From: an uncultured Pelosinus sp.
Lineage (GTDB): Bacteria; Bacillota; Negativicutes; UMGS1260
NCBI GenBank assembly: GCA_900550105.1
Contig: URQW01000004.1
Location: 9,575 to 73,574, forward strand
Length of the DNA: 64,000 nt
Reading direction: 5' to 3'
In this document: positions 39,448 through 60,781 of the stretch, piece after piece
Layout: every line of letters starts with the position of its first letter
Position numbering within the stretch: the first letter of the stretch is position 1
The notes under the pieces: model-generated
Told to the model about the DNA's origin: nothing
The model's database searches: none
What the model saw: the letters and a program-made list of their open reading frames with translations, nothing else
Program-made: the position numbers and the translations under genes

Positions 39448-39450
39448 AGT

Positions 39451-40812
39451 CTATCTCTCCCTTAATCCTTCACTTTGATACTTGCGGAACGGATCAAGGA
39501 AGAACTCCATAATTCGTTTTTCACGGATTTTAATTTCTGCCGTAACGGTCATACCTGGCGTAAGCGGCTGATTGGCATCATTGACAAGGACATGTCCTTG
39601 ATCCATCGTCAACACGACGCGGTACTTGCGGTCTCTTTCCTTATCCTTTTGATCCTCAATGGCATCAGGACTGATTTCTGATACAACAGCCGACAATGTG
39701 CCGTACTTTTGGAAATTAAATGTGTCTACTTTCAAGGCGGCCGTCTGGCCGATTTTTACGAAGCCAATATCCTTATTAGCAACCCAAGCTTCTATTTCCA
39801 AGGTCGCGTCTTCCGGTACGATCGCCATGAGAGGCTGCGCTGCTGTTACAACACCACCGACCGTATGAATAGAAAGCTGACCAACACGACCATCAACCGG
39901 TGCTATAATACGGGCTAGACGATTCTTATCTTCCGCCTTTTTCAATTCTTCCGTATATTGCAAGAGCTGTTTGCGATCTTCTGTCAGCTTTGTATCAATA
40001 TCTTTATCATAAGAAGCTGAGGAATTTAAGAGGCGCTGACGGCTTTCTTCCATAGTGGCCTGACTTTTGGCAATCTCACCATCCTGGGCAATAACACTCT
40101 GCTCCAAGCTCTTGCGTTTTGCTCTTTGCTCTAACAATTGAAAATAAGCCACAGCATTTTGCTGATACAGCGTTTCACTGCGTTCTTCCATTTCTCTGGC
40201 AACTTCGAGCTGCTGAGCGTAATTTTCCCGATTTGCCTGAGCAGCCGCATAAGCCGCCGCACTTTGTTGAATCGTTGCTTGGCCTTCACCTAGCTTGGCC
40301 TGCCGTTCCATGAGCCAACTCTGATACAAACTCACCTGAGCAGCTAAATCCTTCGGATCAAGATCAGGCGACGTAGGTGGCGAGAAGGAGCTACCCGTTT
40401 TTTGGGCCATCAAACGAGCTATTTCGAGATTATAATAAGCAATCTGTTTGCGAATACTAGCTAAGTCCGCTTCTGACACCGTTCTATCCAGTTCTACCAG
40501 GACATCGCCTTTTTTCACAGTCTGTCCTTCTTGTACGTAAATCTGGCGAATCACACCTTTGTCTTCCGCCTGAATCACCTTTACCTGACCAGATGGAATG
40601 ACTTTGCCGTTAGCCACAGCTACTTCATCGACATGGCCAAGAAAAGACCAAAGTAACGCCGCTGCGAGCAGCACCATCAGTGAGAAAAGCAGCAAACGGC
40701 CTACTGGCGATGGCGGCGTTTCCGTCACTTCTAGTACAGCCGGCAAAAATTCTACTTCATCACGGGTCAGCTCATCTTGCTTTTTGGGGAAAATCCATTT
40801 TTTCCAATTCAT
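39451..40812 (-). CDS. HlyD-family type I secretion membrane fusion (periplasmic adaptor) protein
   Basis: 453 aa. N-terminal TM, long coiled-coil middle, C-terminal beta-barrel/lipoyl region. Confidence 0.8.
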   Translation of the reverse strand: MNWKKWIFPKKQDELTRDEVEFLPAVLEVTETPPSPVGRLLLFSLMVLLAAALLWSFLGHVDEVAVANGKVIPSGQVKVIQAEDKGVIRQIYVQEGQTVKKGDVLVELDRTVSEADLASIRKQIAYYNLEIARLMAQKTGSSFSPPTSPDLDPKDLAAQVSLYQSWLMERQAKLGEGQATIQQSAAAYAAAQANRENYAQQLEVAREMEERSETLYQQNAVAYFQLLEQRAKRKSLEQSVIAQDGEIAKSQATMEESRQRLLNSSASYDKDIDTKLTEDRKQLLQYTEELKKAEDKNRLARIIAPVDGRVGQLSIHTVGGVVTAAQPLMAIVPEDATLEIEAWVANKDIGFVKIGQTAALKVDTFNFQKYGTLSAVVSEISPDAIEDQKDKERDRKYRVVLTMDQGHVLVNDANQPLTPGMTVTAEIKIREKRIMEFFLDPFRKYQSEGLRER

Positions 40813-40813
40813 A

Positions 40814-42940
40814 TTATCCCTCTTGTTGTAAATATAAATGATAATATAAGCCCTGCAAAGCCATCAACTGGTCATGAGTACCAGCTTCAACCAGACGGCC
40901 GTGATCTAATACTGCAATGGCGTCAAAATTCTGTACTGTCGAAAGGCGATGAGCAATCATAAAGAAGGTGCGCCCAGCGCATATCTGTCCGAGATGATCC
41001 ATAATGATCCGTTCCGACTCATAATCAAGGGCGCTAGTAGCTTCATCAAAAATCAACACACGCGGATTAATCAAGAGTGCTCTGGCAATAGCAACCCGCT
41101 GACGTTGACCGCCAGACAGGGAAGCTCCCCGCTCACCCACTTTCGTATCATACCCCTCAGGCAATTCCAGAATAAATTCATGGGCACCAGCAATCTGCGC
41201 TGCCGCAATGACTTCACTCATAGACGCACTAGGCCGACTCAGGGCGATATTGTCACGAACGCTCCCATTGAAGAGATAGTTTTCCTGGAGGACTACGCCA
41301 ATCTGACTGCGTAGCCAATACGGCGGCACTGTGGCAATATCCATTCCATCGACTAACACGCGACCGCTGTCAGGTATGTACATATGCTGAATGAGTTTCG
41401 TCAGCGTACTCTTCCCAGAGCCAGAGCGTCCCACAATTCCTACCTTGGCGCCAGGAGGCACCTGAAAAGAAATATTCTCAAGTACAGGCGGCAAGTCTAA
41501 GCGATAGCGAAAAGCAATATTTTCAAAGACAATCTCGCCCCGTAAGGGAGGCGCGTCAGGTCGAACCGGCGCCAAGACTGGCTCTGCCTTTGTATTTAAA
41601 ATATCACTAAGACGCTCCATCGACAAAGCAGACTGCTGAACCTGCTGCCACATGCCGATGAGTGTCAATAGCGGCGAAGTGGCCTGTGCCGCTAGCATCT
41701 GAAAGGCAATAAACTGACCGAGAGTCATTTTGCCGTCCATGACGAGATGACCACCGACCCAGAGAATACTCATGGACGATAAAACCTGAATGACAGAAGC
41801 GCCGCCGTTAATCCCAATTCCGAGCTTTGCCGTATCAAAGGTTTTACCTACATAGCGGGCTAGCAAATTCTCCCACTTATGAACAAACTGCGGTTCCAAG
41901 GCCAAAGCCTTGATGGTATGCATACCAGTCACGGCTTCGACGAGAAAGGCATTGTTTGCCGCGCCAGCTTCCCACATGGTTTCAAGCCGTTTTTGGTACA
42001 AGGGCGTCACAAAAACATTCATGGCGAGATAAAAAGGAACTACCGCCAAGGCAACCCAAGTTAACAGCGGACTAAAGGTAAACATAACGGCAATAAAGAC
42101 CACAGAAAAAATCACATCTAAGATGACCGTAATTGCCGTACCTGTCAAAAACTCACGAATGCTGGCAAGAGCACCCACACGCATCATCGTATCGCCCACA
42201 CGGCGGTGCTCAAAGTAAGGCATTGGCAGGGCCGACAAGTGGCGAAACAGCCTTGTCCCTAAAATAACATCAAGCTTATTCGTCGTATGAGTCAATATGT
42301 AGGTACGTAAGATGCCCAAACCACATTGAAAGACACTTAACACCAAAAGAACCAGAGCTAAGATATCGAGGGTCGAGACACCATTATTGCCAATGACTTT
42401 ATCGACAATAACCTGCGTAAATAGAGGGACGACCACCCCAAAGAGCTGCAAGAAGAATGAAGCGGCAAAAACTTCCGCAAAATACTGTTTATAATGCATA
42501 ATAACAGCATAAAACCATTTGAGATTGTATTTACGAATGACTCGCTGCCAATCAAACTTGCGTGTAAAGAGTAGCAGCTCACCTGTCCATTCAGCAGCAA
42601 ACTCTTCCACTGGAACTGCTACAGGTTTTTCTTGTAATGGATCTGATACAAAAACATGTTTCTCGTTGTTCCAACCGACAACGACAAAATGCCCGTCTTT
42701 CATACGGGCAATAGCTGGTATAGGTATACCAGGCAATTCTTCGATTTTTACCCGTTTTGCTTGGGCCTGAAAACGATAATCCTTGGCAAGCTTCTGTAAG
42801 AAAAGCAGCGCCTCTTCTCCCTGCCAGCGGGCCGCTAAAATTTCCGGCTCCACTTTCACCTCTAGATAAGAAGCCGCAATCGAAAAACAAGTCAAGGCTG
42901 TCTTCTCTTGGGGACTCATTTCATTTCGTTTCGTTTGCAA
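40814..42940 (-). CDS. second type I secretion ABC transporter (HlyB/RtxB-like) with N-terminal C39-like domain
   Basis: 708 aa. GRSGSGKST, LSGGQRQR, LIFDEATSALD. Paralog of the 724-aa transporter. Confidence 0.8.
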   Translation of the reverse strand: MQTKRNEMSPQEKTALTCFSIAASYLEVKVEPEILAARWQGEEALLFLQKLAKDYRFQAQAKRVKIEELPGIPIPAIARMKDGHFVVVGWNNEKHVFVSDPLQEKPVAVPVEEFAAEWTGELLLFTRKFDWQRVIRKYNLKWFYAVIMHYKQYFAEVFAASFFLQLFGVVVPLFTQVIVDKVIGNNGVSTLDILALVLLVLSVFQCGLGILRTYILTHTTNKLDVILGTRLFRHLSALPMPYFEHRRVGDTMMRVGALASIREFLTGTAITVILDVIFSVVFIAVMFTFSPLLTWVALAVVPFYLAMNVFVTPLYQKRLETMWEAGAANNAFLVEAVTGMHTIKALALEPQFVHKWENLLARYVGKTFDTAKLGIGINGGASVIQVLSSMSILWVGGHLVMDGKMTLGQFIAFQMLAAQATSPLLTLIGMWQQVQQSALSMERLSDILNTKAEPVLAPVRPDAPPLRGEIVFENIAFRYRLDLPPVLENISFQVPPGAKVGIVGRSGSGKSTLTKLIQHMYIPDSGRVLVDGMDIATVPPYWLRSQIGVVLQENYLFNGSVRDNIALSRPSASMSEVIAAAQIAGAHEFILELPEGYDTKVGERGASLSGGQRQRVAIARALLINPRVLIFDEATSALDYESERIIMDHLGQICAGRTFFMIAHRLSTVQNFDAIAVLDHGRLVEAGTHDQLMALQGLYYHLYLQQEG

Positions 42941-43072: not shown

Positions 43073-45787
43073 TTATGCTTTTACCAATTGGTAAGTTCCT
43101 TGTACATTCGACACTTTATAAGTGTTGTCAGTTGTTTGTTTTGTTCCCAAAACAAAAGTATTTACGCTAGTCGTAGCGTCCCAACCAGTAATTTTCAAAG
43201 AATCAGAACCAATAGTCAGCGTTAAGTCTGCAGCACCTACGGCACTTAATTTCACATCAGATGCAGTCAGGCCATTTGTATAAAGCATAACTTTATCTGT
43301 TTTATCGCTACCATTAGCAGTAATTGTATCAGTACCGTCACCAGCACCAAAATAGAATACATCAGCGCCTTTACCACCAGTCAAAGTATCAGTACCTGCA
43401 CCGCCCCAAATCAAAGCGCCACCGTCTCCAGCTACAATTGTATTGGCAGCACTATTACCACGAAGAGTATCGCTACCTGCACCGCCTTTGATATTGTTGA
43501 TACCTTGATATTTAGCTGTGTCATACAAGCTGATTGTTACACCAGCAGTCTGAGCAGTAGCGTCAATAACGTCACCTTGTCCTGCAGTAGCACCTGTTAC
43601 GGCTACATACGCTAAAGCTTTTGCATCATATTTCACAGCAGAAGTAGTACTTGCAGCAGCCACTACATCAAAGCCAGTGTTATCTGTCGTAGCAAAGGTC
43701 GGACGAACTGTTGATGCTGCATAGCCAGCTACGGTCAGTTTGCTTGCACTACTATCGCCTTTAAACGATACAGTAAGATCGGTACCATCATTAGCAAATA
43801 CCAAATCGGTTGCTTTTGCACTATAAAGCTTAACTAAATCTTCTTTACCATAGCTATCCACTTTCACAGTACCATCGCCAGCACCGAAGAAGTACGTATC
43901 AGCTACGCCATCATCTACACCAGTAGTTCCACCGGAAAGAACACTATTTACAGCTCCTTTTCCAGCCCACAACTGATCACTACCGCCGCCACCAATTAAG
44001 GTGCTAGTTTTTCCAGCAACACCGCGAAGAATATCATTACCAGAGCCACCAGTAGCATTCAAAATACCGCTATATTTTGTAGTATCGCCTAAAGTAGCTG
44101 TGATACCCGTGGATACTGCAGACGCATCCAGCGTTCCAACTGCTGTATCAAGATAAAAGCCAGCTTTAGCATCATATTTTTCCGCTGCATTAGTTCCCTT
44201 TACTACAGTAAAACCAGCATTGTCTTTCGTAACGAAAGTTACAGAAGGTTTTGCATTAAAGTCAACAATATCAAGACTATCTGTCGAATTGTTTTTAAAA
44301 GTTACTTTAAGACCTGCAGCTGCATCATCAGCAAACACAAGATCCGCTACATTAACATTGTATAATTTAACGACATCTTTACCGCCATTACCAGTTACAG
44401 CATCAACACCATCGCCTGAACCAAAGAAGAAAGTATCATCGCCAGTACCGCCTTTTAATGTATCAGTACCACCTACACCGCCCCACAACTGATTACCGTT
44501 GGTATTAAGAGATGCATCTAGAACACTCGATTTAAAGCCACCTACACCGCGAAGAATATCACCAGCAGTACTAGCAGCGCTCGTTACTTTTACGATGTTA
44601 GAGTACTTTGTCGTATCATAGAGAGTAACCGTATCTCCCTTACCATCTGTTGTAAGAACAGTACTTCCATCTGAGTTGCCAACATATTTTTGAATTTTGG
44701 CATCATAGGTAATAGCAGCACCTACGCCGACTTTAAATCCAGCAGCATTATCACTAGTGACGAATGTAGGTTGAGTTGCAGCTGTTGACCAGTCAGCAAT
44801 AACTAATTTGTCAGCAGTATTTCCGTTAAACGTTACTTCTAAGGTTGCACCAACGCTAGTAAATGTAACATCAGAAGCTTTTACATTATAAAGTTTAATG
44901 GTATCTTTACCGCTATTTGCACCACCAAGTGTAACGGTATCAGTACCGTCACCAGTACCAAAGTAGAAAGTATCATCGCCCTTTCCACCTTTGAGCGTAT
45001 CATTTCCAGCTTTACCCCAAATTAAATTATTACCCGTACTAGCAGAATAATCAATTGTATTATTGCCTGCATCACCACGAACAATATCAGCGTATGCCGT
45101 TCCGCCTTTTACATTCGTAACGTTTTTAAATTTAGTTGTATCTGACAAATCAATAGTAACAGCATTTACAGCAGAAGAATCATCTACAGTATTTGCAGTA
45201 GTTGCTTTGCCACCATCAACAAACTTTTCAGTGCCGTAATATTTAATTACATCGTCACCGTCTAAGCCAACAACATATGCTCCGGCAGCAGCGGCAGCAC
45301 TACCAGCATCAATAGTATTGCCCGCATTATCTTTACCAAATACAAATTTACCATTATCTGCAGTCACAAAATCTTTAACGAATGCACTCAAATCCGTGAA
45401 AGGAGCAGCTCCATGCAGTGTAATGCTATTATTGGCATCTAATGAAACAACAACATCGCCACCACCAGTCAGAGAAAAACTTAGCTGACTTGCATTTACA
45501 TTACCAAATTTAATTGTTTGCTTTGTTGGGTCAAAACCATTAATTGTATCTTTGCCTTCACCAGCATTATATACAACTATGTCTTTACCACTACCAACAC
45601 CAAATTTAATGGTATCGTCGCCACTCAAACCATGAATCGTCGTACCATCAGCAGTATTATTACTTACATCAATTGTATTAGCGCTCGAATCGCCCCATAC
45701 TTCTAGAGCAACTGCAGCGTCACCAACTACACTCGTGTAATTATGAGTACCAGAATCAACCGCCACTTGTTTCAATGTTGTTGCCAT
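43073..45787 (-). CDS. RTX-repeat secreted protein, candidate T1SS-exported S-layer protein
   Basis: 904 aa. No signal peptide. No cysteine and only 2 Met. T/G/A/D/V-rich. Four ~100-aa modules each with GGxGDDTFYFGxGDGxD repeats. First gene of the ABC-MFP-ABC operon. Confidence 0.65.
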   Translation of the reverse strand: MATTLKQVAVDSGTHNYTSVVGDAAVALEVWGDSSANTIDVSNNTADGTTIHGLSGDDTIKFGVGSGKDIVVYNAGEGKDTINGFDPTKQTIKFGNVNASQLSFSLTGGGDVVVSLDANNSITLHGAAPFTDLSAFVKDFVTADNGKFVFGKDNAGNTIDAGSAAAAAGAYVVGLDGDDVIKYYGTEKFVDGGKATTANTVDDSSAVNAVTIDLSDTTKFKNVTNVKGGTAYADIVRGDAGNNTIDYSASTGNNLIWGKAGNDTLKGGKGDDTFYFGTGDGTDTVTLGGANSGKDTIKLYNVKASDVTFTSVGATLEVTFNGNTADKLVIADWSTAATQPTFVTSDNAAGFKVGVGAAITYDAKIQKYVGNSDGSTVLTTDGKGDTVTLYDTTKYSNIVKVTSAASTAGDILRGVGGFKSSVLDASLNTNGNQLWGGVGGTDTLKGGTGDDTFFFGSGDGVDAVTGNGGKDVVKLYNVNVADLVFADDAAAGLKVTFKNNSTDSLDIVDFNAKPSVTFVTKDNAGFTVVKGTNAAEKYDAKAGFYLDTAVGTLDASAVSTGITATLGDTTKYSGILNATGGSGNDILRGVAGKTSTLIGGGGSDQLWAGKGAVNSVLSGGTTGVDDGVADTYFFGAGDGTVKVDSYGKEDLVKLYSAKATDLVFANDGTDLTVSFKGDSSASKLTVAGYAASTVRPTFATTDNTGFDVVAAASTTSAVKYDAKALAYVAVTGATAGQGDVIDATAQTAGVTISLYDTAKYQGINNIKGGAGSDTLRGNSAANTIVAGDGGALIWGGAGTDTLTGGKGADVFYFGAGDGTDTITANGSDKTDKVMLYTNGLTASDVKLSAVGAADLTLTIGSDSLKITGWDATTSVNTFVLGTKQTTDNTYKVSNVQGTYQLVKA

Positions 45788-46135: not shown

Positions 46136-47761
46136 CTAATTTCCCTCTAGCCATTTCATAATTTTTCCATTTTGAGTCTCTATATTTGCTTCGAAAACAG
46201 TATGATTTTTTAATTTTATATCTTGAAGCAGTTCATTGCCTAGAGTCTGATCAAAATGCAGCAGATCTTTATAATGTGACAAATCACCTATATATTTCGG
46301 CTCTGCTTGAAAATCATGAACAATTGCATTGGGATAGTTCTTTAAAGCTTGACATAAATAAATTCTCGCCTGCAGCCAAGCGTCAATCGTCGCCGGGTCT
46401 TTCTGACGAAAAAGTTCATAAAAATACAACGTGCTCGGCGGCAGCAAGAGATCAAATTGGGTCGTCGGATTCGCCGCAATAAAAGGAAGAATATTTCTAT
46501 CGATATTTGCTTTGAACTGATCGAATGTATAAGGCGCTGCTTCATAGTAGCGGCGGGCTTGCGGCATATCATGAAAATCATCAGCACGCAGTTTTTCAAA
46601 GCTGCGCACTACCGGTCCTTGGCCAAAGTCGCGCGTCTTGGCCTGCCAATTGTTTAATAGCTGGAGACTCGGACCATAGATCGCTTTCAGGCGCAGGCGT
46701 TCTAAGAGAAGATCGCTGCTTTGCCGCGTGGTCGTGCCATTAAAAAGATACTCCCAATCATTCCAGAAATTTTGATCATAGAGATAAAAAGGAAAATGAC
46801 TTGTCACTGCTTCGACCTGATCAGAAGGACCGCCGAGCGACATAAAGTCCAGCTCCCACAGGACGGACTGGACTTTGCCTGTAGCTAGCGCCGCTGTAAG
46901 CGTGAGCGCTTGCTCATGGACACTAGAGCCGCTCATGGCTAGCTTGACGCTTTTGCCGCCAAGAATCTCATCCACTTCCTCCGGGATATAATTTTCTACA
47001 GCCGAGGTGCCGAGAATGACGCGATCATATGGCAGGTTTCGTAATAAGCCAGGATTTTGATACCGCTGTTCCGCTGACCAATGGGGCAAAGTCCGATTTA
47101 GGCGGTAAAACTGCAGCGGGTCCAGCACATAGTTAAACAGCAAAATCAGACTGCTGCCGCCCACAAGCAAAGCCGCCCACAAAAAAAGCCAGCGGCGCGC
47201 CGCCAAACGGCTCAACTTCTTTTCTTGGCGCTGCCAGCGACGCCAGCAGGCAGCAACACCGCCAAGAACGAGATAGGAGCTGAAGAAAAGGACGACAAAG
47301 GCGCCGCCATAGGATACGACCTGTCTTAGACCACTTTGGGGCGACAGTTCGGATCGGATTGGTATCGTCCAACTCAGATCGCCGGAAAGCGGCAACGCCT
47401 TCGACAGTGCTTGACCGTTTAGTTTGACGACGGCCTGCCCGCCATCCTCATCTTGGAGGAGTAAAAAACAATCCTTTCGGCCATAGCCCTGCCACAAAAG
47501 CGAACCGGTACCGCCCCGGCTAGCAACCCAATTACCTTGCTCACTCTGCCAAGTATGAAAATCGACTTGAAAGGCGGTTGGCGGCAGTCTTTCGCCATCG
47601 ACAAAAAAGGCTTTCACTTTCAGCATCTGACCAGGATAAGCTGGTGAAATTTCAAGGGTAAACGGCTGCAACGGCTGCCAATGAGTGAGATAAAACGCCC
47701 CACACAAAGCAAAGAGTAAACTGGCAATCAGCCGAAATCTACTCAAAGCAATTTTGCTCAT
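46136..47761 (-). CDS. membrane protein with C-terminal DltD-like (SGNH-like) extracytoplasmic domain
   Basis: 541 aa. Three predicted TM helices. C-terminal block LPYDRVILGTSAVENY resembles the DltD N-terminal GSSE block. Directly downstream of an MBOAT gene. Confidence 0.5.
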   Translation of the reverse strand: MSKIALSRFRLIASLLFALCGAFYLTHWQPLQPFTLEISPAYPGQMLKVKAFFVDGERLPPTAFQVDFHTWQSEQGNWVASRGGTGSLLWQGYGRKDCFLLLQDEDGGQAVVKLNGQALSKALPLSGDLSWTIPIRSELSPQSGLRQVVSYGGAFVVLFFSSYLVLGGVAACWRRWQRQEKKLSRLAARRWLFLWAALLVGGSSLILLFNYVLDPLQFYRLNRTLPHWSAEQRYQNPGLLRNLPYDRVILGTSAVENYIPEEVDEILGGKSVKLAMSGSSVHEQALTLTAALATGKVQSVLWELDFMSLGGPSDQVEAVTSHFPFYLYDQNFWNDWEYLFNGTTTRQSSDLLLERLRLKAIYGPSLQLLNNWQAKTRDFGQGPVVRSFEKLRADDFHDMPQARRYYEAAPYTFDQFKANIDRNILPFIAANPTTQFDLLLPPSTLYFYELFRQKDPATIDAWLQARIYLCQALKNYPNAIVHDFQAEPKYIGDLSHYKDLLHFDQTLGNELLQDIKLKNHTVFEANIETQNGKIMKWLEGN

Positions 47762-47799
47762 AGATAGCCTCCCTTCTGCTGTATTTCATAAAGATGCTA

Positions 47800-49200
47800 T
47801 TAGAATTTAAAATATAAGAATTCACTCACTTGATTGAGATTGAGCAGAGCCGCTAAGAGAAGCAATGCAAGCAGCAAGGCGCTTGTCCAGCTAGGCGACA
47901 GTGAGTCGGCCGTATCCTGAGAGTTCTTGCCGCAAAAGGCTAGAGCGGCGCCAACGCCAAAAAGGATCGCGACTTCCATCGTAAGATATTCAGGCGTAGT
48001 ACCGCCGGAGCGGCCCAGCATAGCCCGAAAAAAAGTAAAGGCTGTTGTGAGGTCTGGACTGCGCAGAATCACTAAGGTGCCATTTACAAAGAGAAACGTT
48101 GCCGCCCAAGCCAGAGCAGCGGGCACCTTCCAGCCCTGGCGTCGCCACCAGTGATTGACGACAAGGCCAGTGGCGTGAAGAGCATAAAACAACAAAAAGC
48201 CCCAGCCAGCCTGATGCCAAAGTCCAGCGATCATCATAGCCAGAAAAGTAGCCGCCATAGCATAAGGGAAGGTAAACTTACCAAAGGCGCGAAAAATCGG
48301 CGTATAGAGATAGGTCGTAATAAACTGCGTCAAAGAAATGTGCCAGCGCTGCCAAAATTCAATAATCGTTTTGGCCTTATAGGGGCTGTTGAAGTTAATC
48401 GGCAACCGGATATTGAACATGCGACCAATGCCAAGGGCCATATCGGAGTAACCGGAAAAGTCAAAATAAAGCTGAAAAGTATACGCAAAGCTAACGACCC
48501 AGGCAGCCCCGGAAGAAAGCATTTCAGGTGCGACAAAGCCGGGATTGGCGATGCGGGCGAAGGCATCGGCCAGCAGCACTTTTTTTGCCAGGCCTAAGGT
48601 AAATAAGGCAATGCCGCTCATAAACCAATCCGCTTGAAAAAGTTTACTACGCAGACGATCAAACTGCGGCATCATCTGCTTATGGTGTAAGATTGGTCCC
48701 ATAAGCAGATGGGGAAAGAAGGTGACAAATAAGAAATAATCGAGAAAGTCGGACTTTTTGACAAGACCTTCATAACTGTCGACAAGGTAGGTAAGCTGAG
48801 TAATTGTAAAAAAGCTAATGCCAAGAGGCAGTACGAGATTCCACAGAGGCCAGTCTGAACCGAATAAGAGATTGATATTCTCTAGGAAAAAGTCCGTATA
48901 TTTAAAATAGACAAGTACAGAAATATTGACTGCTAAAGCAAATTGCAAGAGTCGTTTCCGCCCTTGACTCTTTCGCTCCTGCCGTGTGGCAATCAAGCGT
49001 TTCCCTAGAAAAAAATTAAAGAAAATACTCCCTAAAAGAATCGGTATGTACTGCAAATTGAACCAGCCGTAAAAGAATAGCGAAGCCGCCGCCAGCCAGC
49101 CTTTGGCAGCCAGCGTTAAATGACGGCGGTTCAAGTAGAAATAACATAGGAGTGTAACAGGCAGAAACACAAAAATAAAGGGATAGGAATTAAAGAGCAT
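47800..49200 (-). CDS. MBOAT family membrane O-acyltransferase (DltB/AlgI-like)
   Basis: Start set at MLFNSYPFIFVFL, the typical MBOAT N-terminus. Multi-pass membrane protein. Conserved His in the RWHISL block. Confidence 0.8.
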   Translation of the reverse strand: MLFNSYPFIFVFLPVTLLCYFYLNRRHLTLAAKGWLAAASLFFYGWFNLQYIPILLGSIFFNFFLGKRLIATRQERKSQGRKRLLQFALAVNISVLVYFKYTDFFLENINLLFGSDWPLWNLVLPLGISFFTITQLTYLVDSYEGLVKKSDFLDYFLFVTFFPHLLMGPILHHKQMMPQFDRLRSKLFQADWFMSGIALFTLGLAKKVLLADAFARIANPGFVAPEMLSSGAAWVVSFAYTFQLYFDFSGYSDMALGIGRMFNIRLPINFNSPYKAKTIIEFWQRWHISLTQFITTYLYTPIFRAFGKFTFPYAMAATFLAMMIAGLWHQAGWGFLLFYALHATGLVVNHWWRRQGWKVPAALAWAATFLFVNGTLVILRSPDLTTAFTFFRAMLGRSGGTTPEYLTMEVAILFGVGAALAFCGKNSQDTADSLSPSWTSALLLALLLLAALLNLNQVSEFLYFKF

Positions 49201-49582
49201 GGCGTTCCTCCTGAAGTAGCTCCATGAGACCGAGCGGCGTATAGACAAAAGCCACTTCCCTGCCACCAAACAGCGGCGCTGGTTTCGGCGGCGAAATCAG
49301 TCGAGCGCCTTCTCGGCTAAGCTGCTCAATCGCTGGAAGAAGATCAGGAACTTCCCAGCATAAATGGTAGAGATAGACCCCTTTCTTCACATAGCTTGCT
49401 ACGACTGGCCCCGCAATGAGCTCAATGGACAGACCAGCCGCCGTCTCAATCATACAAAGCTCCGCTTGCTGAGCCGCATCAGCTACTACAGGACTGATTG
49501 ATAGCACCGGCTGGGTTCGACGAACAAAGTCAGCGGCAGCGGCGATATCGCCGCAAGCAATGCCTGCATGGTGAAATTTCAT
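49190..49582 (-). CDS. VOC/glyoxalase-fold family protein (methylmalonyl-CoA epimerase-like)
   Basis: 130 aa. MKFHHAGIA N-terminus typical of VOC enzymes. Confidence 0.6.
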   Translation of the reverse strand: MKFHHAGIACGDIAAAADFVRRTQPVLSISPVVADAAQQAELCMIETAAGLSIELIAGPVVASYVKKGVYLYHLCWEVPDLLPAIEQLSREGARLISPPKPAPLFGGREVAFVYTPLGLMELLQEERHAL

Positions 49583-49812
49583 GCTAGTTTTTCCTCGATC
49601 AAAACCAGCATCTCGCCAACGTTCTGCAAACTTTGCAGTTCCCCTAAGGCAAAGCGGATCTCAAAGGCTTCTTCGACAGCGATCACCAGCCGGATATGAG
49701 CAATAGAGTCCCATTCGGCAATATCAGCAGCTGTCGTCTCGCCCGTAATGGTAAGATTCGCATCATCAAAAACCTCTTGAAACACGGTTTGCAGCTTGTC
49801 TAATGTATTCAT
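49579..49812 (-). CDS. acyl/peptidyl carrier protein
   Basis: 77 aa, acidic. Phosphopantetheine-site-like motif EWDSIAH. Confidence 0.7.
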   Translation of the reverse strand: MNTLDKLQTVFQEVFDDANLTITGETTAADIAEWDSIAHIRLVIAVEEAFEIRFALGELQSLQNVGEMLVLIEEKLA

Positions 49813-49813
49813 C

Positions 49814-50719
49814 CTAATATACCTCCAATAACGCAGAATAAGAAACGTCGAGTTTTTGTTTTTCCATCCAAGCTAAGTCTTTCGCCAGTGAGGGCGCGAC
49901 AAGTTCATCGACAATCCGATAGCCAGCATCACGTAAAAGCTGGCGAATTTCTTCGACCGTACGGAAATGGTAGAGATGGTCAATGGCCGGACTGTTGGCG
50001 CAAGTCGTCACAAAGAGACGGCTGCCCTCATGCATCAGTCTAGCTAAACCGCGCAAAATCGCTGTCGGGTCGGGCACATGTTCCAAGACCTCGCCCATCG
50101 TAATAAAATCATATTGTTTTCCTGGCTGAAAAGCCACGACATCGGCTAAGACGAGTGATAGCCGCTCTTTCGCTTCCGGCTGCAGGGCGGCAATAATCTC
50201 TGTCGTAATGGCTAGCGAGGTTTTACTAATATCGACAATGTCCATATGCGCAAAGCCCGGTCCTTCTGTCAGCATGGCCAAAGTGTAGAGGCCGTGGCCG
50301 CTGCCCACTTCAAGCACTTGCTGCTGCGGCGAAAGTTCTTGCAAAATGCGGCGGTAATGGCAAAAGATCTGATAATGGTGGGGCCAGAGAAACTGCGATA
50401 AGGCTAACCCAAGCATATACTGCTGCATAAGTTTAGGATTATCGTAGACCTTTTCTACCGCTTCTGCTTGAGACTGAGCCGGATAGCGGCCTGTCCGCAA
50501 AAACTCCATCCTGGCATGCATTGTTTGATTGAGCATATCCAAATAAGACTGGGCCAGTGCTGCAGGCGTAATGCCTTGGCGCGCCATAAAGACGCTGTAC
50601 TTGCTCAGAAAGCGGTCTAGTTCGCCTTCCATGGCTGGTTCTGCGGTAAAAGCGGCTTCAATTTTCTTTTGCTGTGTCGGCATTTGGGTAAATATATAAT
50701 CAAGGATTTCTTGTTTCAT
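49814..50719 (-). CDS. class I SAM-dependent methyltransferase
   Basis: LEVGSGHGLY motif I. 301 aa. Start may be the internal MPTQQ at 50683. Confidence 0.7.
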   Translation of the reverse strand: MKQEILDYIFTQMPTQQKKIEAAFTAEPAMEGELDRFLSKYSVFMARQGITPAALAQSYLDMLNQTMHARMEFLRTGRYPAQSQAEAVEKVYDNPKLMQQYMLGLALSQFLWPHHYQIFCHYRRILQELSPQQQVLEVGSGHGLYTLAMLTEGPGFAHMDIVDISKTSLAITTEIIAALQPEAKERLSLVLADVVAFQPGKQYDFITMGEVLEHVPDPTAILRGLARLMHEGSRLFVTTCANSPAIDHLYHFRTVEEIRQLLRDAGYRIVDELVAPSLAKDLAWMEKQKLDVSYSALLEVY

Positions 50720-52502
50720 GGTTCACCTCGATCCACTGATTTTGTTTCTCATAAACATCGGGAATGGTAAACTGCCAAAGCGTTTCGCCGTCAAGTCCTT
50801 CGCCTGCCGGAATAAATCCCAGTGATGCATAAAGGCTAGCAACCATGGCATTTTTCGCTGTTGGCCGATAGACGCCGCAAATGGTCTCAATCTGCCGTTT
50901 TTGGCAGAGCGCCACAAGTTCGTCAAAAAGGGCTTGCTCTAACGACCGCTTTAAGACGCGACAGCTCATAATCCAGAGCTCAAGCAAAAGTGTATTCGCT
51001 TCCTGGCGACCAATCAAAGCAGTTACCAGCCCATTATCGCCAAATTGATCGGCCAATCTTCCATAAAGAGTGACATAGTCTGACCGCTGCGAAAGAGCTT
51101 CTACTTCCGCAAAGGTATAACGGCGCGTCGTCAAATTAAACTGATTCGTTTTATTAATGAGCTGGGTCAGTCTTTCCCAATGCAACGGCGCAAAGGGCTT
51201 TATTTCGGCCTTCATCTTTAAAGACAGTAAAAACTCCTCATAGCTGGCAAAAGCAGCCGACTGTTCTTCCCGCTTTGCTTTCTCCTGATAAAAGCGCGCC
51301 CGCTGTAAATCATCGGCTGACAAGAGGGCCGGCTCAAAATAGCCGCTGCGGCTAAGCTGCGACACATAGTAGGCTACATCAGAGCCAATATCCGGCACAG
51401 AGACAAGAGGTAGCTGCTGCGCCACAATCTGCCGTTCCGCCGGATTATCATCAAAAAAGACGAAGCTGTCTAGGCCCAGCTGCAGCGTTGTCGCCATTGC
51501 CTGCAGATTATCTGATTTAGCCTGCCAATTGGCCGTAAAGTTAGCAAAGTCACTCAGGCTCAAGACGCTACTCGGATGCGTGAAGCCTTCCTTAGCAATG
51601 TGGGGCTCATTTTTCGAACAAACCGCTAAAACAACGCCGCGCTGTCCAAGCTCTTTTACATAGCGCTGCAAAGCGCTATGGGCTTCGCCAGATGGCGTTT
51701 CCGGTCCCAGTTCAATGTGATCTAGACCATCATCGCCGATGGTCCCGCCCCACAAAGTATTATCAAGATCAAGAACGAGACACTTCTTGCTCTTGCCATA
51801 AAGCGCCAAAATCATGATAGAAAGATTCGCCGCGATCTCGACAAGCCCTTCCATTCCCATGGCATATTTATAGGCATACCAAAGTTTTTCATCATGCCAA
51901 TGTTTTAGCCCGATTGTGCTGGCCAGTGTATGCAAATCCTGCACGAAAAAATGCGCTGTCTGCTGTGCATAGTCGGCGAGGCGCTGATTTAACTCGCGCA
52001 CAAAGCGAGTATGACCGCGCCAGTCAGACTGGTCTAGATTGCCAAGCAGGCGATAAGGCGGCAGTTCCCAGTTGTTCTGAATCACTGTGCAGCCATAAGC
52101 GGCGGCTGTCTTTTCCCAGATTCGTTTATGGTGCTGAAACTGAAGCGCTAATTTCTCTTCTGCACTGGCTTTTGTATCGGTCATAGCAGGCCAGTAGCGA
52201 ATGTTGCGGACTGATGTATGAAAATAGAGCAAATCGGGGGCAAAATCCTTTAACTTTGGATTGTCAAAAAGTATATCTTCTTCATATTGATTATAATCAC
52301 TTTCATAAAAAACTGGCTTGATCCCCTGACTCATCAGAAAAACAGCCATAAGGTCAGCTAACTGGGCTGTGGTCGAACCTCCCAGAATAGCGATTTTCAG
52401 CGACAACGAGTAGTTTTTTTGATCAAGCTGTTTTTTCCAGCTCCGGTAGTGCTTTAGCACCGTCTGATACTGGAAGGAATATGGATTTGCCATGCTTTCC
52501 AC
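50700..52502 (-). CDS. FkbH-like HAD-IIIC family enzyme (N-terminal domain, HAD phosphatase core, C-terminal Cys-containing acyltransferase-like domain)
   Basis: 600 aa. HAD motif I LVLDLDNTLWGG. C-terminal MSCRVLKR Cys block. Located next to the carrier-protein gene. Confidence 0.65.
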   Translation of the reverse strand: MESMANPYSFQYQTVLKHYRSWKKQLDQKNYSLSLKIAILGGSTTAQLADLMAVFLMSQGIKPVFYESDYNQYEEDILFDNPKLKDFAPDLLYFHTSVRNIRYWPAMTDTKASAEEKLALQFQHHKRIWEKTAAAYGCTVIQNNWELPPYRLLGNLDQSDWRGHTRFVRELNQRLADYAQQTAHFFVQDLHTLASTIGLKHWHDEKLWYAYKYAMGMEGLVEIAANLSIMILALYGKSKKCLVLDLDNTLWGGTIGDDGLDHIELGPETPSGEAHSALQRYVKELGQRGVVLAVCSKNEPHIAKEGFTHPSSVLSLSDFANFTANWQAKSDNLQAMATTLQLGLDSFVFFDDNPAERQIVAQQLPLVSVPDIGSDVAYYVSQLSRSGYFEPALLSADDLQRARFYQEKAKREEQSAAFASYEEFLLSLKMKAEIKPFAPLHWERLTQLINKTNQFNLTTRRYTFAEVEALSQRSDYVTLYGRLADQFGDNGLVTALIGRQEANTLLLELWIMSCRVLKRSLEQALFDELVALCQKRQIETICGVYRPTAKNAMVASLYASLGFIPAGEGLDGETLWQFTIPDVYEKQNQWIEVNHETRNP

Positions 52503-52507
52503 TGCCT

Positions 52508-54043
52508 TTATCCCTCCTTGTCGCGAACTACGCCAATCCCACTGATCCGTTCGACAAAGTATTCATTGTCAAGTAAATTTCGATTCCAGCAGATCAGGCT
52601 GTTACGATCCCAGATAAAAGAATCTTCTGGCGTAAATTGATCATATTGGATATGCCAGCCCTTCCCTTCTTTTTCAGCTGGCAAAAAGCGACCTTTTCGA
52701 TCAGCAAAGATTTTTTTCCGCGCCTGTTCCGGGCTGCGAAGCGGATAGTGACGCAGCAAAAATTTAATCGGATAAACTTTTTGATCGGCAAATTCGGCAA
52801 TATGACCGCCGCTTGCGGCAAGATTTACCGCTACGCCAGATTGGTTCTTCCAAGCTTTCACCTGAGCAAAATGGCCTGGCCGCTTGCCAAATTCAAAAAA
52901 GAGTAAATTATTCTGCATCCCGCCGGGTCTGTCAGACTGCGGCGCAACTGGACGAAAATCAAGTACGGTAAAATCAATTGCATTAAAGCCTAATTCATCA
53001 ATAAAAGCAATCGCTGCGCCTAAGGTAACCCCTTTCCAGGGCGATTCGCGGATTTCGTCAGCGTCTTGATGAATAATCCAATCATAGCCGCTGGCAGCGC
53101 CAACCTCTACGGTATGCTTAAGCAGACGTTCCCATTCATAGTACTGACCTGGCTGCTCAGGAAAACGGCAGGAAAAAACCCGCCCCGGATAGGCCGCTTC
53201 CAGCGACTGAATGGCTTCGTAGGTACCATCATTAGACCAGTTATCAACAACTTGGACATCCACATCTTGTCGTAAAAGATGCTCTACGACTTCGCCGATC
53301 ATGTCAACTTCATTATAAGCGTTTACGACTGCCAGAACTCGACAAGGTTTCGTTGCTGGCTGGTAAAGATGAGTCCCCGTCAGTGCCAGGATTGTATTTT
53401 TTTGTAGGTGATAGCTTGTATTAATCGTATGTCCCAACATAAAAGGGGCAAAGTCATAGCGGCGGAGCAGCAAATCAAATTCATCAGCTGTCCATTCCCT
53501 GACGTGACAACGATTCGCTGGCGGACCAAAGTCGCCAAGGCCACGGCATTTCACTCGGTCTGGCGTCGAGATTAAAATATAAGGGCATTGGTGACTGAGT
53601 GAACTGAGACTCGCTAGCAACTTATGGGGATTCACTAAATGTTCCACTACATCGGATATGATAATCAGCGTTTTCGCTAGCGCCACTGGCGGCAGGGATG
53701 GCAGCCCTTCTTCGAGATTCGCCTCAACAAAATGCATACTAGGTAGATTTTTCCGGATAATTTCTTGATTCCCGCCATAATCGATGCAAATCAGCTGATA
53801 GTCGTCACTGAAGGGTTTCAGCTTGATACCATTGCCGCTGCCAATATCAATAATGGTTTCAATCTGCGACCGTTTTGCCAGATAACGGGCCAGTTCGTAG
53901 ACATCAGGCTGGTAAATAAACTGATCGGCCACATCCAGATAATATTCGGTCTCGCGATTTATCGCATAGCCTTCTTTCAGGCAGAATCGATCTTCTTCTA
54001 TATTGTCGCTTGCCCTTTTGGCAAAAAAATCAAAGAAGCCCAT
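52508..54043 (-). CDS. bifunctional class I SAM methyltransferase / family 2 glycosyltransferase
   Basis: N-terminal IIDIGSGNG MTase motif. C-terminal GT-A region (VVNAYNE...VVDNWSNDGT). Confidence 0.6.
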   Translation of the reverse strand: MGFFDFFAKRASDNIEEDRFCLKEGYAINRETEYYLDVADQFIYQPDVYELARYLAKRSQIETIIDIGSGNGIKLKPFSDDYQLICIDYGGNQEIIRKNLPSMHFVEANLEEGLPSLPPVALAKTLIIISDVVEHLVNPHKLLASLSSLSHQCPYILISTPDRVKCRGLGDFGPPANRCHVREWTADEFDLLLRRYDFAPFMLGHTINTSYHLQKNTILALTGTHLYQPATKPCRVLAVVNAYNEVDMIGEVVEHLLRQDVDVQVVDNWSNDGTYEAIQSLEAAYPGRVFSCRFPEQPGQYYEWERLLKHTVEVGAASGYDWIIHQDADEIRESPWKGVTLGAAIAFIDELGFNAIDFTVLDFRPVAPQSDRPGGMQNNLLFFEFGKRPGHFAQVKAWKNQSGVAVNLAASGGHIAEFADQKVYPIKFLLRHYPLRSPEQARKKIFADRKGRFLPAEKEGKGWHIQYDQFTPEDSFIWDRNSLICWNRNLLDNEYFVERISGIGVVRDKEG

Positions 54044-54045
54044 AG

Positions 54046-55419
54046 TTAGTCCTCCGTCTCTTGCTGTTGCTCAATAAAATCAATCTGCGCATCTGTCACT
54101 ATAACGGCGCCATGCTGTCGACCGAAACGGTCTTGTCTATTTACTTTAAGAGAAAAACAGTCACTCACATGATGAACCACTGTATGATCCTCCATAGTTC
54201 CTTCATCAAGTCCAATACTGATAAAGTAGGTTCCAGGCCTTAGTCCTGGCAGCTTTAAGCAGTAGCGAATACAAAACGGCTCCGTCGACTCATGCAGGCA
54301 CTGTACCTGCGTCAAGGCCGTATCGCTATTAAAATGAACAAGTGGCACACCTTTATCATTAAAGATGCCAAACCCAAAGAGCGGCTGATAAACTGGCTTT
54401 TGTACAGCAACTCTGGTATAGAGAGTCAATAGCTCATCACCTTGTAGATCCTGGCTGTCTTTCCCTTCCGGCAGAACCAGCGCCGCTGCGATAAAGCGCG
54501 TTGCTTCGCCGCCCAAAGCGGCAAAGGGAGAAAGGTCCAGCCAGTTTAAGCCTGTTTCTTTAGAAGTATCACTACAGTCGCCGGTCATAGCGCTCCCTGC
54601 TTCTCGCTGAGCTTCGCCGTTGCTTTCGCCTGTTACGGTTATTTCTTCTCGTTCACACGGTTCGGCTTTTTCTTCCGGCAATATGCCATGAATCATGAAA
54701 TCCTCATAAAGTCTGGCTACTTTTTTCGGTTCGCCGCTTTGAAACAAGCGTCCGTCAGCCAGCCAAATGACGCGATTGCAAAAGGTGCGGACAGAGCGCA
54801 TGTCATGAGAAACAAACAAAATAGCTTTTGCTTTCGCCATAAGTTCTTTCATCTTGCGAATCGCCTTTTGCTGAAACCGCAAGTCACCAACAGCTAGTGC
54901 TTCATCAATAATCAGAATTTCCGGCTCTACAGCAATAGCTACAGCAAAAGCCAGCCGGACGAACATCCCGCTGGAATAGGTTTTTACAGGTTGTTCAATA
55001 AATTGGCCAATATCGGCGAATTCCAAAATGGCATCAACCTTGCTGTCCATTTCTTCTTTCGTATAGCCCATAATCGTGCCATGAAAATAAATATTTTCCC
55101 GTCCCGTAAATTCTGGGTTAAAACCGGCTCCCAGTTCAAGCAGCGCTGATACGCGGCCTGTCATGTCAATTTGTCCGCTCGTGGGCGTCAAAACGCCTGT
55201 AAGCATTTTTAAAAGAGTTGATTTACCTGATCCATTGCGACCGATGATGCCTACCATTTCGCCTTTACGGATCGAAAAGGAGAGATCCTTTACAGCGAAA
55301 AATTCCTGATGGTACTGGCGTCCCAAGGGATGAAGCGACTCTTTTAGACGGTCAACTGGCTTATTATAGATTTTATAAGCTTTTGATAAATTTTTTACAT
55401 CAATTACGACTTCATTCAT
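54046..55419 (-). CDS. wzt: polysaccharide ABC exporter ATP-binding protein (Wzt/TagH type) with C-terminal carbohydrate-binding extension
   Basis: N-terminal NBD (GRNGSGKSTLLK, SSGMFVRLAFA, IIDEALAVGD) plus ~200-aa C-terminal beta domain. Confidence 0.8.
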   Translation of the reverse strand: MNEVVIDVKNLSKAYKIYNKPVDRLKESLHPLGRQYHQEFFAVKDLSFSIRKGEMVGIIGRNGSGKSTLLKMLTGVLTPTSGQIDMTGRVSALLELGAGFNPEFTGRENIYFHGTIMGYTKEEMDSKVDAILEFADIGQFIEQPVKTYSSGMFVRLAFAVAIAVEPEILIIDEALAVGDLRFQQKAIRKMKELMAKAKAILFVSHDMRSVRTFCNRVIWLADGRLFQSGEPKKVARLYEDFMIHGILPEEKAEPCEREEITVTGESNGEAQREAGSAMTGDCSDTSKETGLNWLDLSPFAALGGEATRFIAAALVLPEGKDSQDLQGDELLTLYTRVAVQKPVYQPLFGFGIFNDKGVPLVHFNSDTALTQVQCLHESTEPFCIRYCLKLPGLRPGTYFISIGLDEGTMEDHTVVHHVSDCFSLKVNRQDRFGRQHGAVIVTDAQIDFIEQQQETED

Positions 55420-59968: not shown

Positions 59969-60781
59969 TTACAATACATCGGCAAAATGCGGCCGCAGCC
60001 GTTTAAAAACAAAAATCCCTAACAAAAACATAGCGCCTGTAAACGTCCAAAAGTACAAAGTTAAGGACATATTTTCCCAAAACCATTTATGATAGACAAA
60101 ACAATCCCGATAGCCTTCCGTAAGATAATACACAGGATTTAAGACTAATAAAGAATGATACCGAGCGGGAATTGTTTTTAATGACCAGAGAATCGGCGTC
60201 ATCCAAAAGAGGAACTGCAACATCATCGTAATAAATTGACTAACATCACGTAAAAAAACAACTATGGCGGAAGTTAGCCAGGAAAAACCCAGCACAAAAA
60301 TCAAGGATGCAAACAAATAATAGACTACTTGAAGCGCATACAGATCGGGCTTATAGCCATAAATAAGAAACATAGAAACTAAAAAAATGAGAAAGAAAAA
60401 ATGCACAAATAAAGCAGATAAAACCTTGATAACAGGAAGTACATGAACAGGAAAAACAACCTTTTTGACGAGATAACTGCTTTCAAGCACGGAATTAGCA
60501 GCAGAAGACATGCTGTCAGAAAGGAAAAACCATGCAAGCATTCCTGGTAAAAACCACAAGATAAAAGGATAATTATCAACTGGCATCGATTTAAACCCGA
60601 CTTCAAAGACAAACCAAAAAATAAGTACGGTAATCGTCGGTTGAATAAATGCCCAAAGAATCCCCAAATAGGACCCTAAATATCTTGTTTGCAAATCTTT
60701 TTTTGTTAATTCCAAGATTAAGGAACGATTTTGGCTAATATCCCAAAGAAAAGCTCCTAGCTGTTTGATAAAGTTCACCAA
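59969..60781 (-). CDS. wzm: polysaccharide ABC exporter permease (ABC-2 type, Wzm/TagG)
   Basis: 270 aa. Six predicted TM helices. N-terminal DLQTRYLGSYLGILWAFIQP ABC-2 signature. Confidence 0.8.
   Translation of the reverse strand: MVNFIKQLGAFLWDISQNRSLILELTKKDLQTRYLGSYLGILWAFIQPTITVLIFWFVFEVGFKSMPVDNYPFILWFLPGMLAWFFLSDSMSSAANSVLESSYLVKKVVFPVHVLPVIKVLSALFVHFFFLIFLVSMFLIYGYKPDLYALQVVYYLFASLIFVLGFSWLTSAIVVFLRDVSQFITMMLQFLFWMTPILWSLKTIPARYHSLLVLNPVYYLTEGYRDCFVYHKWFWENMSLTLYFWTFTGAMFLLGIFVFKRLRPHFADVL

Follow-up and report, generated by a model that had tools for sequence, protein, structure and literature searches.

An apparent FkbH-fed MBOAT-SGNH acylation cassette in an O-polysaccharide locus of an uncultured Pelosinus sp.

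Described acylation systems and the six-gene cassette

The acylation of bacterial surface polymers alters resistance to antimicrobial peptides, lysozyme and phage, and also affects immune recognition. The system discussed here is a cassette of six genes on contig URQW01000004.1 of an uncultured Pelosinus sp. (assembly GCA_900550105.1, positions 9,575 to 73,574 of the forward strand; this whole stretch of 64,000 nucleotides is called the window, and coordinates are given within it). The cassette shares features with several characterized acylation systems and is best described as a hybrid, in which a PatA/AlgI-type MBOAT-SGNH pair is apparently fed by an acyl carrier protein (ACP) loaded by an FkbH-type enzyme.

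The Dlt system, comprised of DltA, DltC, DltB, DltX and DltD, delivers D-alanine to teichoic acids and relies on an adenylating loader (DltA), a small phosphopantetheine carrier from which the MBOAT can draw the acyl group, and a membrane-anchored SGNH protein bearing a Ser (PMC12148441). Its acyl-shuttle motif, FXYXXF, which forms an acyl-Tyr intermediate, is borne by the separate microprotein DltX, as set out in a 2025 paper in the Journal of Biological Chemistry (PMC12148441). In PatA, AlgI and related acetyl-CoA-dependent MBOATs, FXYXXF is instead fused at the C-terminus, together with two extra transmembrane (TM) helices absent from DltB (PMC12148441). The PatA/PatB, AlgI/AlgJ/AlgX, WssH/WssI and PatA1/PatB1 systems, which act on exported glycans, each pair such an MBOAT with an adjacent single-pass or membrane-anchored SGNH partner presenting a Ser/Asp/His triad. 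Current models give acetyl-CoA as the donor for PatAB, AlgIJ and Wss, and D-alanyl-DltC as the donor for Dlt only (PMC12148441). Glyceryl-ACP synthases, namely FkbH, OzmB, Mad7 and Mad14, form a glyceryl-S-carrier from 1,3-bisphosphoglycerate and thereby load ACPs (PMC7489565). A related chemistry is found in the AerB loading module of the suomilide and varlaxin pathways (OMT-FkbH-PCP-ST), a nonribosomal peptide synthetase (NRPS) module in which the glycerate on the FkbH-loaded carrier is O-methylated to 2-O-methylglycerate and the unit is condensed into a peptide, with sulfation (PMC10143770).

The window cassette fills the interval 46136-52502 exactly with six contiguous minus-strand open reading frames (ORFs) of the window ORF list; the original prediction had counted seven genes, although it named only six. 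They encode an FkbH-like loader of 600 aa (50700..52502), a class I S-adenosylmethionine (SAM)-dependent methyltransferase of 301 aa (49814..50719), an ACP of 77 aa (49579..49812), a VOC metalloenzyme of 130 aa (49190..49582), an MBOAT of 489 aa when counted from a TTG start (47800..49269) and the membrane-protein partner of this MBOAT, of 541 aa (46136..47761). Since the six genes overlap or are separated by gaps of no more than 38 bp, the arrangement is consistent with a single operon. Database entries 100% identical to the loader and to the 541-aa protein come from a Sporomusaceae metagenome-assembled genome. Family scans (Pfam and NCBIfam) place five of the six proteins, the exception being the 541-aa protein, for which an SGNH fold is assigned from structure. 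The methyltransferase, VOC and MBOAT assignments made earlier were borne out by these scans, and the motifs quoted with them were all found, including DLDNTLW at residue 245 and MSCRV at 512 of the loader, EWDSIAH at 33 of the ACP (which holds Ser36), MLFNSYPF in the MBOAT and VILGTSAVEN at 248 of the partner.

The loader matches the TIGR01686 FkbH domain at 279.3 bits (cut-off 146.65), as well as HAD-IIIC, and FkbH_N at 48.4 bits. Its predicted model, with a predicted local distance difference test (pLDDT) score of 86.8, displays three domains: an N-terminal SGNH/flavodoxin-like domain corresponding to FkbH_N, a HAD-IIIC phosphatase domain bearing D245-x-D247-x-T249, K329 and D351-D352, and a C-terminal GNAT-fold domain in which Cys514, within a W-x-M-S-C-R-V motif, comes after the beta-4 strand. 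In GNAT enzymes this position accommodates the pantetheine arm. Residues D245, D247, T249, S296-K297-N298, K329, D351-D352 and Cys514 are invariant across 40 loader homologs, and the catalytic motifs recur in FkbH domains within NRPS and polyketide synthase (PKS) megasynthases, which must load carrier domains; these references derive from a single-sequence FkbH scan of genome contigs that gave seven loci, six of them NRPS/PKS megasynthases. With a score above the family cut-off and both the HAD motifs and the Cys intact, the protein is a true FkbH-domain protein, as had been predicted, and by analogy with the characterized enzymes it would use 1,3-bisphosphoglycerate to make glyceryl-S-ACP. 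Like FkbH, OzmB, Mad7 and Mad14, it is encoded near a stand-alone ACP. Those enzymes serve polyketide and tetronate pathways, whereas the cassette holds no ketosynthase, and neither an FkbI/FkbK-type dehydrogenase nor a FabH-like condensing enzyme was found in the cassette or in the 64-kb window; neither a methoxymalonyl-ACP nor a tetronate pathway is therefore indicated, and the consumer of the loaded unit is apparently a membrane acyltransferase. A role in tetronate or polyketide small-molecule synthesis was rejected because no condensing enzyme is present.

The ACP gene lies two genes downstream of the loader gene. Its product scores 21.1 bits against PP-binding, barely over the cut-off of 20.8, and matches the ACP models of NCBIfam at E = 2.6e-7; it is of a generic type and not specifically DltC. 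The phosphopantetheinylation residue Ser36 lies within W34-D35-S36, and all 58 distinct cassette ACPs have both D35 and S36, which sustains the earlier reading of a 77-aa carrier with a pantetheinylation Ser. The methyltransferase (Methyltransf_23, 63.8 bits) belongs to a family with 808 detectable homologs. Contexts seeded on this family include FkbH and ACP genes in all four cases and, in three of the four, an MBOAT with FXYXXF at its end and a partner after it. From the adjacency of its family to FkbH-ACP genes in every context examined, the enzyme is presumed to be an O-methyltransferase of the carrier-bound acyl group. The OMT-FkbH-PCP module of AerB provides a precedent for such methylation on the carrier (PMC10143770), although the likeness is one of chemistry, as the window proteins are free-standing and their unit is presumably esterified to a polysaccharide.

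The VOC protein (Glyoxalase_4, 49.9 bits) keeps the metal ligands H5, E54, H73 and E121 in 18-20 of 20 sequences, with C75 also conserved. Its score against the methylmalonyl-CoA epimerase model TIGR03081 is 29.5 bits, under the cut-off of 114.95, and the two have in common no more than the VOC fold and the metal ligands. It is presumed to be an epimerase or isomerase acting on a 2-hydroxyacyl thioester, either as a C2 epimerase or as an enediol isomerase. Another member of its subfamily, a VOC domain scoring 109 bits, is fused directly N-terminal to FkbH in an NRPS of Catenovulum sediminis (L009:1-7692), which has the order A-T-C-VOC-FkbH-T-C.

The MBOAT matches PF03062 at 74.3 bits, and its true start is probably M24 (MLFNSYPF) at 49200, giving a protein of 466 aa whose start overlaps the VOC stop codon. 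Its best solved relative by sequence is DltB (6bug; E = 3e-27), and both conserved His motifs align to that protein, namely RWH (His310) and GLWHQAGW (His352), the latter against GFWHGITW in DltB. The score against the DltB equivalog TIGR04091 is 151.8 bits, far under the cut-off of 375. At its C-terminus the protein extends approximately 50 residues beyond DltB, hydropathy marks hydrophobic segments at 429-447 and 460-478, and the extreme C-terminus, F484-L-Y486-F-K-F489, matches FXYXXF. In the 64-kb window no small DltX-like ORF, and no other ORF of substantial length, ends in FXYXXF, the sole other match being a 10-residue fragment. Because the motif is fused to the MBOAT on extra TM segments and no DltX is present, the membrane half is, by sequence, of the PatA/AlgI type rather than the Dlt type.

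The 541-aa partner has no Pfam or NCBIfam match and no match to a DltD sequence model, including PF04914. A word-indexed homolog search returned ten relatives, and a profile of the family searched against 1.84 billion representatives returned 4,053 clusters, mostly of about 350 aa, of which 1,535 have E <= 1e-30; none of ten members scanned had a significant Pfam match. The partner thus belongs to a large unnamed SGNH family with 4,053 representative clusters and no Pfam model of its own. The MBOAT gene is directly upstream in seven of seven contexts seeded on the family, which identifies it as an MBOAT-partner family. Its alignment displays an invariant S253 (in G-T-S), D499-x-x-H502 and an EQRYQNPG block. 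The AlphaFold model (mean pLDDT 74.7, and 85-96 within the core of the C-terminal domain) predicts a first TM helix (3-26), a beta-sandwich (32-134), a second and third TM helix (141-213) and an alpha/beta SGNH-fold domain (236-541). The latter is modelled as a five-stranded flavodoxin-like SGNH fold for which DltD structures give the longest structural alignments. Block I Ser253 follows the first beta-strand and the Block V D-x-x-H lies close to the C-terminus, and hence the partner has the canonical, non-permuted SGNH order (for the block order, see PMC9487903), whereas the AlgX and DHHW families are circularly permuted. The loop between the second and third TM helices is rich in Arg and Lys, and by the positive-inside rule the beta-sandwich and the SGNH domain would both be periplasmic. 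A DltD-like protein had been proposed at this position; the SGNH fold, the structural alignment to DltD and the invariant Ser and D-x-x-H speak for this, while the absence of any match to a DltD sequence model speaks against it. The long form of the partner, seen in the window, P0002 and P0003, carries an additional N-terminal TM helix, a beta-sandwich of about 100 residues and two further TM helices that are missing in the short forms of about 350 aa. This extension (residues 1-213) may be a glycan-binding module.

Taken against Dlt, the cassette shares the small phosphopantetheine carrier, the MBOAT, the membrane-anchored SGNH protein with its Ser and the FXYXXF acyl-Tyr motif. It differs in having an FkbH-type HAD/GNAT loader and no AMP-binding protein, in a predicted C3 hydroxyacid as the acyl group in place of D-alanine, in the fusion of FXYXXF to the MBOAT, in added methyltransferase and VOC tailoring enzymes, and in a diderm host where the likely target is an O-polysaccharide. 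A true Dlt system was rejected, as there is no adenylase, no DltX, no DltB-level score and no match to a DltD model. The same features, apart from the adenylase, overturn the Dlt-like membrane half that the original prediction had proposed. The PatA/AlgI-type pairs share the C-terminal FXYXXF on extra TM segments, the adjacent SGNH partner with its Ser/Asp/His triad and, as proposed for the window pair, an exported glycan as the target; they use acetyl-CoA and no carrier (PMC12148441), whereas the window pair is in an operon with an ACP, its loader and tailoring enzymes.

Recurrence of the FkbH-carrier-MBOAT linkage

Gene sets of this kind are common. A metagenome scan with the FkbH alignment gave at least 581 confirmed FkbH-like hits, from human-gut, rumen, Chlorobi, Nitrospirae, Planctomycetota, PVC-group, Spirochaetes and Alphaproteobacteria sources. 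The best 80 were analysed and, when collapsed at 80% identity or higher, these loci formed 58 clusters, 29 of which have at least 3 kb on both sides. An ACP gene is adjacent in 49 of the 58 clusters (84%) and in 24 of the 29 that are well flanked. An MBOAT gene is found within 5 kb in 25 clusters (18 of the 29 well flanked, or 62%), and within 1.7 kb in 23 of the 58. Among the best 80 loci the MBOAT start lies 60 bp or less from the ACP stop in 13, and the commonest neighbour family after the ACP is the MBOAT, with 39 loci compared to 10-13 for the next non-cassette families. Across phyla, the FkbH, ACP and MBOAT genes are linked much more frequently than is any other neighbour family, in line with the earlier reading.

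FXYXXF is a near-constant feature of the full-length MBOATs linked to FkbH, all but two of which end in F-[ILMV]-Y-x-x-[FY]. These MBOATs are 22-66% identical to that of the window, and their partners are of either the AlgX/DHHW type or the unnamed G-x-S...D-x-x-H type; such diversity, combined with at least two partner types, suggests that the module was recruited repeatedly. The whole locus is reproduced in L001 and L002, with a partner 39% identical to that of the window. A spirochaete metagenome-assembled genome (L005) displays the same six-position order, FkbH-methyltransferase-ACP-VOC-MBOAT and then a membrane protein of 350 aa that bears G-x-S and D-x-x-H motifs. The methyltransferase of both L001 and L005 belongs to the window family.

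Many pSymB plasmids of Sinorhizobium meliloti, among them those of strains GR4, SM11 and BL225C, carry a set in the order VOC-MBOAT(FLYQGF)-partner-ACP-FkbH. The partner in this case (L096:7215-8444; CP140883.1, WQO38805.1) is mis-annotated as a "TonB-dependent receptor" and is a distant, SGNH-type member of the partner family (BLASTP E = 5e-10; profile E = 3.8e-19). The pSymB copy makes the hypothesis of a carrier-fed pair testable by genetics in a tractable organism.

Tailoring genes and transferases vary among the FkbH-ACP loci. VOC genes occur in 14 of the 58 clusters and in 8 of the 29 well-flanked ones. A MaoC-type dehydratase and a short-chain dehydrogenase (SDR), separate or fused, are present in many loci (L014, L021, L025, L028, L037, L098, L100 and L101), some of which also have the methyltransferase family of the window. 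In such loci these enzymes replace or accompany the VOC and methyltransferase genes, which suggests the synthesis of related acyl groups, possibly of a lactyl type. Where the MBOAT is missing, a WcbI-family or hexapeptide acyltransferase is found alongside FkbH and ACP. The Niveispirillum cyanobacteriorum plasmid NZ_CP025615.1 (L097), for instance, has the module in an MBOAT-free form: FkbH-ACP precedes a putative acyltransferase of the WcbI family and an SDR, and a sulfotransferase gene lies close by.

The proposed pathway and its alternatives

The most likely reading, favoured with moderate confidence, is that the operon builds a small acyl group derived from glycerate on a carrier protein of its own and passes it by way of the MBOAT pair onto an exported glycan. 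The cytoplasmic half is pieced together from the chemistry of the enzyme families. The loader would take a phosphorylated C3 glycolytic intermediate, which is 1,3-bisphosphoglycerate in the characterized FkbH enzymes; its HAD domain would dephosphorylate the C3 unit, bound as a thioester to Cys514 in the GNAT-fold domain, and the glyceryl group would then move onto the phosphopantetheine arm of ACP Ser36. The VOC protein and the SAM-dependent methyltransferase would modify the bound group, with an O-methyl-glyceryl thioester as the likely product. The membrane half is modelled on the PatA/PatB and Dlt mechanisms. At the cytoplasmic face the MBOAT would collect the acyl group from the carrier, as in Dlt, and His352 would catalyse its transfer to the MBOAT's own Tyr486 (in FLYFKF) on the periplasmic side, as in PatA. 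Ser253 of the partner would accept it there and esterify a hydroxyl of the acceptor polymer, most likely a rhamnose/mannose-type O-polysaccharide exported by the neighbouring Wzm/Wzt transporter. The transferred group is probably O-methyl-glyceryl, and the Wzm/Wzt O-polysaccharide is probably its acceptor; the substrate, the order of tailoring and a direct ACP-to-MBOAT transfer are likewise inferred.

This coupled pathway is favoured because every component is intact, the genes are tightly packed and the linkage recurs, and because independent seeds, namely the methyltransferase family and the S. meliloti loci, converge on the same set. The fusion of a VOC domain to FkbH in an NRPS, the presence of another acyltransferase in loci that lack the MBOAT, and the chemical precedents of AerB and Dlt point the same way. 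The gene set, the folds, the catalytic residues, the operon structure and the recurrent linkage across phyla are all shown by the analysis.

A number of observations nevertheless weigh against it. Adjacency within a glycan locus is no proof of a shared pathway. Acetyl-CoA is the only donor demonstrated for MBOATs built like PatA/AlgI, as this one is, and MBOAT-SGNH systems other than Dlt are stated to have no carrier (PMC12148441). In contexts seeded on the partner family, a search unbiased toward FkbH, five of six independent loci hold the MBOAT and partner alone, outside glycan loci and with neither FkbH nor ACP, and the MBOATs of these stand-alone pairs are the closest to that of the window after L001 (403-426 bits). 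Twelve FkbH+MBOAT loci, mostly with a partner gene, have no ACP detectable even at E < 0.1. None of the 80 FkbH-seeded metagenomic loci has the methyltransferase, and the VOC protein occurs in only about a quarter, and therefore neither tailoring step is core to the FkbH module. Homology between the L005 partner and the window partner family is not demonstrable, the profile-profile probability being 1.4%.

The stand-alone pairs, the main caveat, bear on an account, judged unlikely, in which two unrelated modules lie side by side: an O-acetyltransferase pair of the PatAB/AlgIJ type that uses acetyl-CoA, and an FkbH-methyltransferase-ACP-VOC set feeding another, cytoplasmic transferase that acts on a nucleotide sugar or an undecaprenyl-linked glycan. 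That the nearest MBOAT-partner relatives occur without FkbH or ACP speaks for such a division, as do the fused FXYXXF architecture with its demonstrated donor, the FkbH-ACP loci that hold a WcbI or hexapeptide acyltransferase and no MBOAT, and the 8 of 29 well-flanked clusters with an ACP and no MBOAT. The FkbH-linked MBOATs of L099 (364 bits) and L028 (46% identity) fall in the same clade as the stand-alone ones, so that either donor specificity shifts within this clade or all of these pairs use acyl-CoA and the FkbH module is independent of them. However, neither the cassette nor the annotated genes of the 64-kb window, where a 344-aa and a 279-aa protein have no family assignment, yielded an acyltransferase besides the MBOAT pair. 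The MBOAT is also the leading neighbour of FkbH-ACP, often within 60 bp of the ACP stop, in diverse clades and with two partner types, and the minimal cassette of S. meliloti pSymB, located outside glycan loci, holds only VOC, MBOAT, partner, ACP and FkbH. In two of the ACP-less loci (L032 and L034) the FkbH gene adjoins the MBOAT gene with a gap of 6 bp. An AlgI-type acetyltransferase acting without the ACP, the scenario that the original prediction had itself set against its own reading, is weakened by this evidence, yet the closest relatives are mostly ACP-less stand-alone pairs.

The ACP-less loci (L020, L032, L034, L056, L061, L068, L069, L074, L082 and L088-L090, several of which are from human-gut metagenomes) also suggest that the ACP may not be an obligatory donor; in these, the GNAT domain may load CoA or pass the acyl group on directly. 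A reading for the window in which the GNAT-fold domain of the loader loads CoA as the true donor of the MBOAT, and the ACP is a tailoring scaffold or dispensable, draws on these twelve loci (with or without a partner), on the shared fold of the Cys514 domain and the CoA-binding GNAT acetyltransferases, and on the known use of acyl-CoA by PatA-type MBOATs (PMC12148441). It is considered very improbable, given the adjacent ACP in 84% of the FkbH clusters, the invariant Asp-Ser motif, the loading of ACPs by characterized FkbH enzymes (PMC7489565) and the frequent direct adjacency of ACP and MBOAT genes. The pathway might otherwise be as proposed with a different acceptor, an alternative that seems improbable; another envelope component would then receive the group, for instance peptidoglycan, some other glycan or the neighbouring secreted RTX-repeat protein, which may belong to an S-layer. 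An RTX protein and type I secretion genes directly follow the cassette, with this synteny seen also in L001; the S. meliloti cassette is outside any recognizable glycan locus, and the stand-alone pairs adjoin genes of the outer-membrane efflux protein (OEP) family rather than glycan genes. Against this, the window cassette sits among O-polysaccharide genes with a gap of only 5 bp to the nearest, other cassettes are flanked by Glf, GT2, Wzx, Bac_transf or Wzt genes with no RTX gene nearby, and the characterized MBOAT-SGNH pairs all act on glycopolymers (PMC12148441).

If the coupled pathway is correct, the cassette would represent a third type of donor for MBOAT-SGNH systems, an FkbH-loaded carrier with a C3 unit that is derived from glycolysis and can be tailored before export, and it would predict glycan esters that are not yet assigned to genes. 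The searchable literature yielded no description of an FkbH-fed or carrier-fed MBOAT-SGNH system other than Dlt, in agreement with the earlier suggestion that an ACP-dependent MBOAT with an FkbH-type loader is undescribed. A broader and more tentative proposal, judged somewhat less likely than not, is that FkbH-ACP modules are a general, modular route by which exported glycans are decorated with small C3 hydroxyacyl esters drawn from glycolysis, with swappable tailoring sets and transferases. The tailoring set (VOC, O-methyltransferase, or MaoC and SDR) would then define the acyl group as glyceryl, O-methyl-glyceryl or lactyl-type, and the transferase (a PatA-type MBOAT-SGNH pair, WcbI or a hexapeptide enzyme) would define its destination. 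Some PatA/AlgI-type MBOATs would accept ACP donors, against the current view that DltB alone does so, and candidate genes would be at hand for the glycerate and lactate esters that bacterial polysaccharides are known to carry. Among these is the L-glycerate of gellan, for which the literature gave no relevant gene paper.

The surrounding locus

The cassette sits within an O-polysaccharide locus of the ABC-transporter type, and the flanking Wzm/Wzt genes are present as first described, along with glycosyltransferases and rml genes. The upstream side comprises rmlA, rmlB, rmlD, Wzm, a methyltransferase, a 910-aa double GT2, a GT2, Wzt and a methyltransferase-GT2 fusion. The last of these (52508..54043, minus strand, 511 aa; Glycos_transf_2 34.5 bits, Methyltransf_23 33.4 bits) lies 5 bp upstream of the cassette, is syntenic in L001 and is part of the O-polysaccharide pathway. 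Wzt (54046..55419, minus strand; ABC_tran 96.1 bits, Wzt_C 59.8 bits) is the transporter ATPase with a C-terminal glycan-binding domain and presumably would export the acceptor polymer in company with Wzm, an ABC-2 permease (59969..60781, minus strand; ABC2_membrane 62 bits). The glycan-binding domain of Wzt and the two methyltransferase genes of the locus (59010-59936 and the GT2 fusion at 52508-54043) fit a polysaccharide whose chain end is capped by methylation and then recognized for export. A consensus promoter and terminator scan of the cassette region gave nothing interpretable above noise.

On the downstream side are a 904-aa RTX-repeat protein, two C39-ABC exporters and HlyD, and farther downstream rmlC, a GT2, ManC, a phosphomannomutase and two more RTX proteins. 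The RTX proteins (23915-25306, 25496-29329 and 43073-45787) and the type I secretion system (37273-42940; two C39-domain ABC exporters and HlyD) interrupt the O-polysaccharide locus, and this insertion (window 23915-45787) splits rmlC from rmlABD, with synteny kept in L001. The arrangement resembles that of S-layer proteins of the RTX type with an O-antigen anchor, such as those of Caulobacter. Elsewhere in the window, and unrelated to the cassette, a gene at 8743-9579 encodes an encapsulin shell protein (Linocin_M18, 221.9 bits).

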